DNA from: Patescibacteria group bacterium
GTDB taxonomy: Bacteria; Patescibacteriota; Dojkabacteria; JAKAPS01
Assembly: GCA_025450075.1 (NCBI GenBank)
Contig: JANWIC010000003.1
Location: 32,800 to 96,799 of the forward strand
DNA: 64,000 nucleotides
Direction of reading: 5' to 3'
Made by a program: the position numbers and the translations under genes. Of the stretch, positions 3,432 to 52,852 are shown in pieces. The notes under the pieces are model-generated. The model was not told the origin of the DNA, did no database searches, and saw only the letters and a list, made by a program, of their open reading frames with translations. Positions within the stretch are counted from its first letter, which is position 1. Each line of letters starts with the position of its first letter.

Positions 3432-4171
3432 TATAGCAAGCATATATGAAGTGTATGCTTACTATATATGTCAAATCATTTTTGGCATATATGAGAGTTT
3501 AGCTCATTGAAAACTGAATAGAATGAAAAAACGACACACAGATATTTATTTGTTTAATTATTTGTGGGTATAAAAATTTCAATTTCGAATCAATGATCAC
3601 TTTAGTAAAATAATTAAAGAGCATATGGTGGATGCCTTGGTGTAAGAAGCCTATGAAGGACGTCCATACCTACGATAAGCCTTGAGGAGCTGGTAAAGAA
3701 GCGTTATTACTCAGGGGTCTCCGAATGAGGAAACTCATCCCTTTATGGGATATTCATTCTCCGAATAAAATAGGGAATGAAAGGGTACCTGGTGAACTGA
3801 AACATCTTAGTAACCAGAGGAAAAGAAAGAATATTCGATTCTCTTAGTAGCGGCGAGCGAAAAGGGAAGAGCCTAAACCTTATTATTGTTACGATATTTT
3901 CGATTCTGTTTACAGAAGAGACTATATCAGCGTTTTACAGACGTATCTAATAAGGGGTTGCAAGATATAGCGTGTTATGACTGTATAGCATAACAGGAAG
4001 TAAAAAAATTTGATTTTAGGAGAAGAATGCTGGAAAGCAACACCAAAGAGTGTGACAGTCACGTATCTAAAAATTTCAAATCTTCTTAACTATATTCTTA
4101 AGTACTACGGGACACGTGAAACCCTGTAGGAATCTACCTCGACCACGAGGTAAGGCTAAATACTTCTTACA

Positions 4172-4216
<45 letters not shown>

Positions 4217-5654
4217 GGGAGGGGAGTTAAAAGTACCTGAAACCATATGCTTACAAACAGTTGGAGGGTGAAGTTATCCAGTTTACTGGATACGCCTGAC
4301 AACGTGCCTATTGAAGAATGAGCCGGCGAGTTGTGTTCCAGTAGCGTTAGGTTAAGCTTTTAAATAAGTTGAGCCAAAGCGAAAGCGAGTCTTAAAAGGG
4401 CGATTTAGTTGCTGGAACTAGACCCGAAACCGTGTGATCTATCCATGGACAGAGTGAAGTCTTGAGAAATCAAGATGGAGGCTCGAACCAGTTAACGCTG
4501 AAAAGTTATTGGATGATCTGTGGATAGCGGTAATATGCCAATCGAACACGGAAATAGCTGGTTCTCCCCGAAATAGCTTTAGGGCTAGCCTTGAAATTTA
4601 AATTGCAGAGGTAGAGCTCTGATTGGATCGTTGGGGGTCTTTATGACCTACCACATCCTGTCAAACTACGAATGCTGTGATGTACATTTCAGGAGTTAGA
4701 CTATGAGGTCGAAGCTTCATCAGTCAAAAGGGAAACAGCCCTCATCGCCAATTAAGGTCCCTAAATTTAGTCTCAGTGGAAAAGGATGTGAAAGTCCTTA
4801 GACATCCAGTATGTTGGCTCAGAAGCAGCCATCATTTAAAGAGTGCGTAATAGCTCACTGGCAAAGGAAATTTGCACCGACAACGTAACGGGGCTTAAGA
4901 CTAATACCGAAATTGCGGGATTGTAGAAATTTATTTCTATGATCGGTAGGGGAGTGTTCTATATTCCACGAAGGTAGACCGTAAGGACTGCTGGAGAGTA
5001 TAGAAGTAAGAATGCCGGCATGAGTAGCGAAAGATATGTAAAAAACATATCCACCGCATGCCTAAGGGTTCCTCGGCTATGTTAATCATCCGAGGGTTAG
5101 TCGGTCCTAAGCTGAGAGCGAAAGCTGTAAGCGATGGACAACAGGTTTATATTCCTGTACTAGTATTTGTTCGTTATCAACAATGGGGTGACCGGGAAGG
5201 AGAACGTAAAGAGCTTTATGGTTAAGCTTCTAAGCAGCAAGGTAGGATTAGCAGGCAAATCCACTAATCCGTTACGTCGAGCTGTTATGGGGAGTCTGGT
5301 AGCAATACCGGGCGACTTTACTATTCATCCTGCAAGAAAAACCTCTAGCGAGAACAAATCTAACCGTACCGTAAACCGACACAGGTGGGCGAGTAGAGTA
5401 TACTAAGGTGATCGGGATATCTTCTCTTAAGGAATTCGGCAAACTGCTGTCGTAACTTAGGGATAAGGCAGCCCATGGGTTTTAATTCATGGGGACACAA
5501 ACCAGGCTCGAGCGACTGTTTAACAAAAACACAGGTACCTGCTAACTCGAAAGAGGATGTATAGGTGCTGACACCTGCCCAATGCCAGCATATTAAAGAA
5601 GTGGGTCATTCCGAGTTTACTCGGATGAAGCTTGCAACTGAAGTACTGGTCAAT

Positions 5655-5695
<41 letters not shown>

Positions 5696-6252
5696 CGTCG
5701 CTTGATAGGCGACCCGCACGAAAGGTGTAACGACTTGAGCGCTGTCTTGAGAGGAGGCCCGGCGAACATTGAAATGGCTGTGAAGATGCGGCCTACCCAC
5801 ACCCGGACAAACAGACCCTGTGGAGCTTTACTAAAACTTGGCATTGGATTAGGTTCATTGATGTAGAGTATAGGTGGGAGACTTTGAAGCAGTTCCGTCA
5901 GGAATTGTGGAGTCAACAGTGTAATACCACCCTTTAATGTTTCTGATTCTAATTTGAGCCGTAATCCGGTTCAAAGACAGTGTCTGGTGGTTAGTTTGAC
6001 TGGGGCGGTTACTTTCTAAAGTGTAACGAAAGTACTCAAAGGTTCCCTCAGTTCCAATGGAAACGGAACAAAGAGTGTATTGGCATAAGGGAGCTTTACT
6101 GTTACACCTACAAGTGGAGCAGTTGCGAAAGCAGGACAAAATGGCCCTTAGGTGGCATGTGGATGCGCCTAAGATTAATGGATATAAGCTACCCCGGGGA
6201 TAACAGGCTAGTCTTGCCCAAGCGTTCATAGCGACGGCAGGGTTCGGCACCT

Positions 6253-7086
6253 ACAACTAACACAACGGGGCGCGGTAGAAGTAATTCTATTAGCACTGTT
6301 ATAAAAATTTAATTATCAGCTCATAACGGTGGAGTCCTAATTAGGTATATAATATACCTGATGGATAATACCGTGGGAAGTCTAACAAATGAACAAAAGT
6401 CAATTCTCATAGGAACTCTTTTAGGAGATGGTTTTATGAGAAAAAAGAAGAACGCTTATTTAGAAATAAACCATTGTTATAAACAAAAGGCATTGGTTGA
6501 TTGGATCTTTAATAACTTTAAGTCGTACGTTAATACTCCTCCAAAAATAAGAAGAAATAATGGAGCAAGAGAAGCTTATAGATTTTCTACAAGAAGTCTT
6601 CCAGTTTTTACTACTTAATTATGACTTATTTTATAAAAATGGAGTGAAGCATATTCCAAACGATTTAATTATTGATCCACTTGCATTAGCTGTATGGTTT
6701 ATGGATGACGGAAATAAATCTAGATCATCAATATATCTAAATACACAACAGTTTATTCTAAATGATCAAATTCAATTAATGAACATTTTAAGAAAAGAGC
6801 TTGGAATCGAATCAACTCTAAATAAAGATAAAACTTATTATAGAATTAGAATAAGAACAAGCAGTACTCCAAAATTTGTTTCACTAATTGATCAATTTAT
6901 ATTGAAAGATTTTCGATATAAATTACCACTTTGTTATGACCCCGTATCGACTTAGAACATAATGTTCTGGAGTTCTCTTTAATATAGAGAGCTAAAACGC
7001 TGACTCCTACTCTTTAATATGACGAATTAAAGACAAGAGGATGAAGGTATAGTCAGTTCTTGTAAGTAATTACGAGGTATTTTACG
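6253..7086 (+). mobile_element. Group I intron (IA-like) in 23S after E. coli U2500, 834 nt
   Basis: Splits GGCACCT|CGATGTCGGCTC; 5' exon ends in U and intron ends in G; P3 TCAGC(6316)/GCTGA(6999), P4 ACGGT(6326)/ACCGT(6370), P7 GACT(6949)/AGTC(7051); extra hairpins between P7 and P3'. Confidence 0.93.
6361..6955 (+). pseudogene. Intron-encoded double-motif LAGLIDADG homing endonuclease, +1 frameshift near 6616
   Basis: Motif 1 ILIGTLLGDG in ORF 6361-6618; motif 2 ALAVWFMDDG in ORF 6560-6955; removing one base at ACT-TAAT-TAT joins them into ~197 aa. Confidence 0.88.
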
Positions 7087-7122
7087 CGATGTCGGCTCGT
7101 CACGTCCTGGGGCTGGAGAAGG

Positions 7123-7153
<31 letters not shown>

Positions 7154-7578
7154 TGGCACGTGAGCTGGGTTCAAACCGGCGTGAGCCAGGTTGGTCTCTA
7201 TCCGGTGTGGGCGTTGGATTTTTGAAGGGAGTTCGTTCTCAGTACGAGAGGACCGGAATGAGGAAACCTCTGGTGCATCAGTTGTTCTACCAAGGGCATC
7301 GCTGAGTAGCCAAGTTTCTATTTGGATAAGTGCTGAAAGCATATAAGCACGAAGCCAATCCCAAGATGAGAAATCCTTCTTAAGACCCCTTGTAGACTAC
7401 AAGGTATTTGAGTTCTAACGCAATTATGGAGCAATCTATATGCGTGTTAGTCCTCTTTATAGGCTCTAGGTGTAAGTACAGCAATGTATTCAGCCGAGGA
7501 GTACTAATCGGTCGATAATTTTACTAAAGTCGATCATTTCGAAATTAGATCATTCTATTCAGTTTCAAGGAGCTAAAT

Positions 7579-39388: not shown

Positions 39389-39399
39389 ATCAAAAAAAT

Positions 39400-39492
39400 A
39401 AAATAAAAAAGACTTCACATAAATATTTAATGAAGTCTCAGACGTGAATCTCGATAGGATTTTAACCGATTCCGGACCTATTGTCTCCGATT
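39400..39492 (-). promoter_or_regulatory. L10 leader with downstream attenuating terminator
   Basis: Minus strand TCGGAGACAATAGG...TTAAAATCCTATCGAGA, then AGACTTCA...TGAAGTCT-TTTT. Confidence 0.8.
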
Positions 39493-39515
39493 CATTAAAT
39501 AATACTATTTAATTG

Positions 39516-41580: not shown

Positions 41581-41652
41581 CAGGCTCAGTAGGATTCGAA
41601 CCTACACTGGTGGTTTTGGAGACCACTGTTCTACCATTGAAACTATGAGCCT
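41581..41652 (-). tRNA. tRNA-Trp(CCA)
   Basis: CT-CCA-AA loop, discriminator G73, located between rpmG and secE. Confidence 0.96.
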
Positions 41653-51582: not shown

Positions 51583-51610
51583 TTGACTTTTTACCAAGGA
51601 GTATTATAAT
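51583..51610 (+). promoter_or_regulatory. Promoter of the T-box/trpS transcript
   Basis: TTGACT-16bp-TATAAT. Confidence 0.7.
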
Positions 51611-51616
51611 GAGGAA

Positions 51617-51835
51617 AACAATGATGGAGTGGCATGGGCTCCGGAGTTGCAAGTGAAAACCCGTAAGGGACAAGTAGCTGTCGCCGCAAAAGATGCGTCA
51701 ATTCTTAGCTGGTTTGATGACCAGTCACAAAGATTGTTGTAGTAATACAACAATGAATATAAGGTGGCACCACGATCTTTATCGTCCTTATATAGTCATA
51801 TACAATATGTGTATGTCTATAAAAGGACTTTTTTT
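51617..51835 (+). promoter_or_regulatory. T-box riboswitch (Trp; ultra-short Stem I; transcriptional)
   Basis: K-turn plus UGG specifier at 51635-51637; Stem II S-turn GAA/AGUA; antiterminator AAGG-TGGCACC-ACG...CGT-CCTT; overlapping terminator with T7. Confidence 0.88.
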
Positions 51836-51856
51836 ATTTTATCTTTCTAAATTTGT

Positions 51857-52852
51857 ATGAAAAAGAGAATATTAACTGGAGATAGGCCAACGGGAAAATT
51901 GCATATTGGTCATTTGATCGGTTCATTAGAGAATCGTGTAAAACTACAGCAAGAATATGATACATATATCATGATTGCAAATGTCCAGGCGCTAACTGAT
52001 AACTTTGATAATCCTGGAAAAGTGAAAAATAGCATCCAGGAACTTCTTTGTGATTATTATGCAGTAGGGATAGATTTCGATATTTCACATATTTTTATTC
52101 AGAGCGAAATCCCCGCGATTCATGAAATTTTTATTTATCTAGCAAACTTTGCAACTGTCCAGCAAATTTCCCATAATCCGACAATAAAGACGGAATTAAA
52201 ACAAAAAGGATATGAGGCTTCAACACCTCTAGGTTTTTTTATTTATCCAATACATCAAGCTGCAGATATTACATGTGTCAAAGCTGATCTCGTGCCGGTT
52301 GGAAAGGATCAGGCTCCGATGGTTGAGTCATGCAGAGAATTGGTTCGAAAATTCAACAATACATACAGCATGAATGTTTTACATGAACCGGAAGCTCTAT
52401 ATGGAGTAGAAAAAAACATTCCTGGAATTGACGGTAATGAAAAAATGGGAAAGAGCCTTAACAATGCTATTTATCTAAGTGACTCAGCTGAAGAATTGAG
52501 GAGAAAAGTATTTTCAGTTACTACGGACCCGAATCGAATTCATCCGACTGATCCTGGAAAAGTTGAAGGAAATGTAGTCTTTACTTATCATGATATCTTT
52601 AATTCAAACAAGGATGAAGTGGCGGATTTAAAACTTCGTTATACAACAGGAAAAGTGGGGGATGTTGAAGTTAAAGAAAAGCTATATAAAGCTATGGAGC
52701 AAACCCTAGCCCCAATTCGTGAGAAAAGGTATGAAGCTGAAAAGAAAAAAGCAGAACTACTTGAAAAAGTAATAGAAACAAGCCGTGAAGTAAGAAAAAT
52801 TGCAAGACAAACAGCAGACGAAATGAAGGAAGCCATGCAGATTAAGTTTTAA
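51857..52852 (+). CDS. trpS: Tryptophan--tRNA ligase
   Basis: TGDRPTGKLHIGH, YPIHQAADI, VPVGKDQ, KMGKS. Confidence 0.97.
   Translation: MKKRILTGDRPTGKLHIGHLIGSLENRVKLQQEYDTYIMIANVQALTDNFDNPGKVKNSIQELLCDYYAVGIDFDISHIFIQSEIPAIHEIFIYLANFATVQQISHNPTIKTELKQKGYEASTPLGFFIYPIHQAADITCVKADLVPVGKDQAPMVESCRELVRKFNNTYSMNVLHEPEALYGVEKNIPGIDGNEKMGKSLNNAIYLSDSAEELRRKVFSVTTDPNRIHPTDPGKVEGNVVFTYHDIFNSNKDEVADLKLRYTTGKVGDVEVKEKLYKAMEQTLAPIREKRYEAEKKKAELLEKVIETSREVRKIARQTADEMKEAMQIKF

Follow-up and report, generated by a model that had tools for sequence, protein, structure and literature searches.

A T-box leader with an ultra-short Stem I was identified 5' of trpS, from position 51617 onward of the window (the whole 64-kb stretch of DNA analysed here). 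The leader probably binds tRNA-Trp through a UGG codon in the apical loop of Stem I and controls trpS by transcription attenuation; its action on transcription and its dependence on tRNA are what we infer from sequence comparisons and predicted folds. Comparative analyses further indicate that it belongs to a Patescibacteria family of T-boxes with a short Stem I, most of them linked to predicted terminators, which serves many amino acid specificities. An earlier sequence-only reading of this DNA had described a Trp-specific leader that combines an ultra-short Stem I with a terminator platform, and these three features were all upheld by the comparative tests reported below.

The trpS leader and its elements

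The elements of the leader, the regulated gene and the predicted ligand are listed in Table 1. The product of trpS scores 246 bits against TIGR00233, for a cut-off of 177.

Table 1. Features of the trpS leader region and the predicted tRNA ligand (window coordinates)
Feature	Position	Strand	Basis
Sigma-70-type promoter (TTGACT, 16 nt, TATAAT)	51583..51610	+	11/12 consensus; predicted start about 51616-51618
Ultra-short Stem I	51617..51648	+	3-bp stem, tandem-GA kink-turn, 5-bp (5-6-bp) helix, 9-nt apical loop
Trp specifier UGG (51635-51637) and 3' purine G	51635..51638	+	AUGGG invariant in 16/16 Trp leaders; cognate-codon tests
Stem II with S-turn (GAA / AGUA), GNRA hairpin cap	51649..51681	+	Rfam alignment; GAA..AGUA in 13/16 Trp leaders
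Stem IIA (CGC/GCG) and IIB pseudoknot (AAGA/UCUU)	51685..51706	+	Pairing in 16/16 Trp leaders
Small linker hairpin (putative)	51708..51725	+	Read off sequence
Stem III with flanking purines	51732..51754	+	Rfam alignment, folding
Antiterminator with bulge UGGCACC (51765-51771)	51760..51790	+	-5.1 kcal/mol; bulge C complementary to G73 of tRNA-Trp
Predicted intrinsic terminator, hairpin 51784-51828 and U-run	51784..51840	+	-22.1 kcal/mol, z -6.9
trpS, tryptophanyl-tRNA synthetase, 331 aa (regulated gene)	51857..52852	+	TIGR00233 above cut-off
tRNA-Trp(CCA), predicted ligand	41581..41652	-	Discriminator G73; CCA not encoded

Among the checks suggested in the sequence-only reading were a search with the class I T-box model and an analysis of covariation across trpS leaders. 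With RF00230, positions 51612-51792 scored 55.2 bits (E 4e-11). The gathering score of 93 is not reached for lack of the long Stem I, and no T-box was listed by the Rfam scan of the window at gathering thresholds. The alignment spans the kink-turn, Stem II, IIA/B, Stem III and the antiterminator, with 76 Stem I positions of the model replaced by 9 nt. This replacement, together with a promoter that ends (at 51610) 6 nt 5' of the hairpin, bears out the absence of an AG bulge and of distal T-loops. The fold of 51617-51648, the RF00230 alignment and the covariation described below likewise agree with a Stem I of about 32 nt in which a K-turn and a short helix carry the Trp codon in the apical loop. 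Folding of Stem I alone gave a modest signal (z -1.6 to -2.4), so that its support rests on comparison.

The sequence-only reading had raised the possibility that transcription starts further upstream and yields a full Stem I. This was rejected for two reasons. In T-boxes with a long Stem I, the additional sequence is inserted between the strands of the kink-turn; here the short hairpin already closes both strands, so that an upstream start cannot supply it. The promoter is also in the wrong place for such a start, since 14 of the 16 Trp leaders have a -10 box no more than 25 nt 5' of the base of the stem (background of 0.18 per random window).

In the central domain, the S-turn of Stem II was recovered as first described, both in the RF00230 alignment and by its recurrence in most Trp leaders. 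The IIA/B element was present too, but the CGC/GCG pairing that had been taken for its pseudoknot corresponds to the Stem IIA helix, the pseudoknot being the IIB pairing of AAGA (51690-51693) with UCUU (51703-51706).

Elsewhere in the window, a ribosomal protein L10 leader (39396-39508, minus strand) lies at the Rfam cut-off (44.1 versus 44 bits). The 23S rRNA gene (3603-7528) has 3926 nt for a model of 2925 positions; the excess of about 1 kb corresponds to insertions, of which two, both short, are visible in the part printed. In the host assembly, which measures 1.11 Mb and is 93.5% complete, no L7Ae-family K-turn-binding protein was found and trpB gave a weak match only, far below cut-off.

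Conservation among Trp leaders and reverse search in metagenomes

Across 16 aligned Trp leaders, compensatory changes occur at all eight pairs of Stem I and 91% of cells are paired; the covariation score of 0.69 compares with 0.29 after shuffling (0/500 as high) and with at most 0.21 when slid. For the IIB pseudoknot, the loop forms 3-5 Watson-Crick pairs with the 3' strand in all 16 leaders, with a mean of 4.25 against 3.13 when cross-shuffled (0/5000 as high).

These data bear on whether the leader could be a decayed or weak T-box that has lost its distal Stem I, in which tRNA binds too slowly relative to the terminator and trpS is expressed from leakage or from another promoter. Such decay would fit the view, put forward in the accessible text of PMC7583486, that the elbow-binding motif is necessary for fast binding in transcriptional T-boxes. 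It would also fit the distribution of the leader, which is patchy among trpS genes since a T-box motif occurs within 450 nt at one of the 80 nearest TrpS loci and the Trp Stem I model matched 5 of 42 TrpS loci. Decay is nevertheless unlikely, because the compensation in Stem I and in the pseudoknot, the invariant specifier and the tracking of genes by codons over many amino acids (see below) point to selection on function.

For a functional leader that senses tRNA-Trp, the choice of UGG as specifier needed comparison, as the apical loop of the window also contains GGC-A and AUG. A loop read in one of these other frames, as Gly or Met codon, alone or besides UGG, is very improbable. The loop of the window holds both triplets, and AUG shows the same invariance as UGG (Table 1), but GGC is variable among the Trp leaders and is lost in the two closest loops, which have GGU and GGA. 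In addition, the bulges of Gly leaders read UGGA and those of most Trp leaders UGGC, the latter suiting G73 and not A73, which is the discriminator expected of tRNA-Met, and the genes downstream are trpS, TrpD-like and TrpE. Ribosome-mediated attenuation through a leader peptide can be put lower still: short frames with Trp codons start within the leader of the window, and one with a single Trp codon overlaps Stem I, yet such frames occur in only 2 of the 16 Trp leaders, at different places, and stop about 100 nt 5' of the switch.

Recognition of UGG by tRNA-Trp, the reading retained here, was also approached from the motif. A search of metagenomes with a 24-letter Stem I pattern gave 23 matches, three of which were too near a contig end. 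A T-box was found 109-151 nt downstream in 19 of the 20 evaluable matches, 16 of these 19 having a hairpin of -17 kcal/mol or less, and no T-box followed the remaining match (L324). The genes after the 19 T-boxes correspond to trpS (7, one of them a copy of a leader found earlier and two identical to each other), TrpD-like (4), a TrpE domain (1), a B3/4 domain (1) and unassigned products (4), with too little sequence in two cases. The Stem I motif thereby predicts tryptophan genes with no gene information as input. A looser Stem I pattern, run over 401 genomes of the phylum, gave 12 matches against about 27 in controls, no more than chance, and failed to match the window itself, so that its result carries no information.

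Specifier codons and downstream genes in related genomes

The comparison comprised the class, the phylum and metagenomes. The RF00230 search of 41 related genomes gave a first set of 88 matches in 27 of them, all 88 sequences being retrieved, and the downstream genes were labelled by Pfam and NCBIfam except for four Trp labels that were taken from trpS coordinates. A parser that is blind to genes and recognizes a kink-turn with a short hairpin, designed after the first-set sequences had been seen, called a short Stem I in 33 of the 88. The cognate codon was found within one frame shift in 25 of 26 synthetase-labelled short loops (19 in a single frame), compared with a mean of 6.0 and a maximum of 15 in 20,000 label shuffles, whose counts overstate significance because the genomes are kin. 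The sole miss, L166, is due to a wrong hairpin picked by the parser, which also overlooked real short stems (for instance L128, L013 and L163). Two of the four coordinate-based Trp labels were confirmed as TrpS fusions; weak Trp labels are those of L148, which ends at a contig end, and of L164, which has a degenerate bulge and two genes between leader and trpS.

The unchanged parser was applied to a held-out set of 79 further genomes of the class, 68 of which had matches (225 in total, the best 150 being listed). Eighty-seven matches were examined, namely the 30 best, 11 upstream of trpS and 46 short ones down the list, and 29 were called. With one previously seen leader left out, all 18 synthetase-labelled loops contained the cognate codon (17 in a single frame), and so did all 10 non-Trp loops, a result equalled by 3 of 20,000 shuffles among genomes that are again kin. 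Among the matches listed, 10 of the 11 upstream of trpS have a short Stem I with a loop ending in AUGGG, one of the 10 having been seen earlier, and the eleventh controls an intervening proS-like gene. Outside the class, RF00230 matches were detected in 43 of 143 genomes of the phylum; the parser called 10 of the 45 matches examined, and the eight labelled loops were all cognate (Ile, Val, Asp/Asn).

Altogether, the short-Stem-I design was found by the parser for Ile, Val, Asp/Asn, Pro, Gly and Tyr as well, and by eye for Arg and Leu, and its scope had therefore been understated in the sequence-only reading. Matches above the RF00230 cut-off occur in only 5 of the 41 and 11 of the 79 genomes, against 27 and 68 with any match. 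The span from GA to GA is 18-20 nt in 14 Trp leaders versus 16 nt in 10/10 Ile leaders; the longer Trp loop may, as a guess, be an adaptation to the CCA anticodon.

Antiterminator, predicted terminator and mode of control

The antiterminator and the predicted terminator share 7 nt (51784-51790) and are mutually exclusive, in line with the switch that had been drawn before trpS, and none of 200 shuffles was as stable as the terminator hairpin. A consensus terminator scan of the window called none, because the stem is long and bulged. The bulge and its C facing the discriminator of tRNA-Trp were also confirmed, both for the coordinates and for G73. Bulges in Trp leaders are either UGGC or UGGU and the discriminator match is therefore not strict; for the Trp T-boxes of TBDB, the accessible text of PMC7778990 gives 46% U at the corresponding bulge position.

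In 15 of the 16 Trp leaders a hairpin of -20 kcal/mol or less precedes a U-run, and the sixteenth scored -41 in separate folds. The strong hairpins begin in the 3' strand of the antiterminator and, in the 12 leaders for which a start codon was found, this codon lies 24-189 nt after the hairpin. Among the 33 short calls of the first set, only 21 have a hairpin of -15 kcal/mol or less, three of the other 12 being calls for which no T-box was found by the script as a starting point; some short-Stem-I leaders that have no strong terminator may act on translation.

For the trpS leader itself, binding of tRNA-Trp could likewise affect translation or RNA stability, with the hairpin acting as a sequestrator as in actinobacterial short-Stem-I T-boxes. 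Known Class III T-boxes are mostly translational (PMC10482949, accessible text), the 3' arm of the hairpin contains AGGA, the 16S rRNA retains a CCUCCU tail and certain relatives have short-stem leaders with no clear terminator. However, some 30 nt separate this AGGA from the AUG, too great a distance for a Shine-Dalgarno (SD) site, and the hairpin is followed by a U-run, with the start codons of relatives as distant as given above; the AUG in the window lies 28 nt after the terminator and is preceded by no purine-rich SD. Control of translation or of RNA stability is thus unlikely here, and transcription attenuation is retained.

Proposed mechanism

By analogy with Class III structures, the kink-turn would dock Stem I on the S-turn of Stem II, and the groove so formed would receive the anticodon while the tRNA elbow is left uncontacted. 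As in known T-boxes, the anticodon would pair with UGG and stack on the next G within the groove between Stem I and the S-turn. According to the general T-box mechanism, the 3' GCCA of uncharged tRNA-Trp would pair with the UGGC of the bulge and hold the antiterminator, so that the polymerase enters trpS; with charged tRNA, the stronger terminator would form ahead of the start codon and transcription would stop. The specifier lies about 130 nt from the bulge, with about 60 nt more to the U-run, which would give the tRNA time to bind.

Other leaders in the host and related genomes

Five T-box-like elements were found in the host genome, four of which have a short Stem I as judged by eye and by the parser. 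These are located 5' of aspS (AAC), of trpS (UGG) and, as a tandem pair, of glyS (GGC). In the thrS T-box (L003; G000:C3:18262-18447), as judged by eye, Stem I is long and displays ACC, and Stem II is not evident; the host genome thus has both the long and the short type. The tandem glyS T-boxes (L004 and L005; G000:C21:27376-27662, minus strand) have an ultra-short Stem I with GGC-A. In these and four other Gly leaders (L025, L266, L274 and L286) the distance to the T-box is 36-57 nt, versus a median of 101 nt in 49 other leaders. By eye, the Gly leaders appear to have no Stem II, in which case they would lack both this stem and the elbow motif.

In aspS leaders the short loop has either the Asn codon AAC (L001, at G000:C21:7672-7826, and L121, L157, L306, L361 and L366) or the Asp codon GAC (L031, L116, L127 and L354), a split that would be expected if the synthetase is non-discriminating. 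A short T-box with GAC was also found 5' of a peptidase S51 gene (L019:747-1490, minus strand), the family that includes the Asp-specific dipeptidase E.

In many cases TrpS carries a tRNA-editing domain fused to its N terminus (L229, L231, L234, L237, L240, L241 and L242), and in two genomes the fusion also includes a B3/4 domain (739 and 899 aa). A TrpD-like protein of about 444-468 aa, below the trpD cut-off, is found under Trp T-boxes (L318, L326, L327, L335 and L311). Trp-type leaders are also found 5' of an AstE/AspA-like gene or of genes for which no family matched at the thresholds used (L239, L317, L308, L322 and L330), which ties these genes to tryptophan.

Several leaders (L022, L027, L123, L129, L147 and L157) have a short Stem I, no clear terminator and a start codon 12-33 nt after the antiterminator and are candidates for translational control. 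In others (L028, L130, L140, L016 and L017) Stem I is intermediate in length and has a small additional hairpin 5' of the specifier, a Class IV-like arrangement as judged by eye. Finally, small genes of the "23S rRNA-intervening sequence protein" family lie directly after T-boxes L153, L252, L259 and L265.

Implications

Probably, though with less confidence than for the trpS leader itself, Patescibacteria possess a T-box branch not yet described, whose minimal codon hairpin, having no elbow motif, drives transcription attenuation for at least 7 amino acids (9 when those identified by eye are included), with a loop size tuned to the codon, and whose Gly versions, also devoid of Stem II, would be the smallest natural T-boxes. 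If this is true, elbow contact is not required for co-transcriptional switching, and Rfam-based surveys have missed most of the tRNA-sensing regulation of Patescibacteria, their RNA-based amino acid sensing escaping annotation at gathering thresholds.

Transcriptional T-boxes are described in the accessible text of PMC7583486 as generally requiring a long Stem I for a kinetic reason, namely that its elbow-binding motif catches the tRNA in time. Stem I length is thus currently tied to the mode of control, a claim that natural short-stem, terminator-linked leaders make testable. The same text reports that the S-turn of Stem II prefers G34, and the many specificities found here provide a series in which to follow the recognition of each anticodon by a small loop, that of Trp, which has no G34, among them. 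The specifier also assigns an amino acid to genes of unassigned function, and T-boxes this small and modular would suit engineering.

Comparison with known T-box classes

Four T-box classes are distinguished in the accessible text of PMC10482949, where Class III is defined by a short Stem I with a loop of 5 or 6 nt and a Kd near 24 nM is given in the absence of elbow contact. According to the accessible text of PMC7778990, class II was sought in Actinobacteria for TBDB, and the class II model was also applied to class I matches with a truncated Stem I; leaders such as those described here may therefore sit unremarked in TBDB data. A literature search, whose reach did not extend to the TBDB data or to key primary papers, returned no paper on a short Stem I combined with a terminator and none on T-boxes in Patescibacteria or candidate phyla, and this combination is absent from the accessible parts of PMC11404447, PMC11297988 and PMC10907184.

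The sensor end of the trpS leader resembles the Class III ileS T-boxes of Nocardia farcinica and Mycobacterium tuberculosis as presented in the accessible text of PMC10482949 and PMC7583486. Both have a short Stem I with no interdigitated double T-loop, an apical loop that presents the specifier with a purine 3' of it, a kink-turn, an S-turn, a IIA/B pseudoknot, Stem III and a UGGN bulge. The trpS leader differs from them in its specificity (Trp and not Ile), in a loop of 8-9 nt versus 5-6 nt, in a predicted intrinsic terminator with no SD at working distance where these have an SD sequestrator, and in its occurrence in Patescibacteria rather than Actinobacteria, with many specificities within one lineage. 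When the specifier of the M. tuberculosis ileS T-box was engineered from AUC to UGG, binding of tRNA-Ile was lost (PMC11297988, accessible text).

With Class II glycyl T-boxes of the Bacillus subtilis glyQS type, the leader shares a transcriptional mode, predicted in the present case, and the Gly leaders of the host also appear to have no Stem II; in Class II the long Stem I is retained, whereas the Trp leader has Stem II but no long Stem I. With Class I (the B. subtilis tyrS type, RF00230, and the Firmicutes trpS and trp-operon leaders) it shares a predicted antiterminator/terminator platform, a Stem II domain, Stem III and the control of a synthetase gene, but it has neither an AG bulge nor distal T-loops nor an internal specifier loop, and its score of 55 bits is to be compared with the gathering score of 93. 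Taken together, the comparisons point to a real T-box whose 3' end would switch as in Class I and whose 5' end is built as the sensor of Class III, and which departs from each of the two classes in a feature by which that class is defined.
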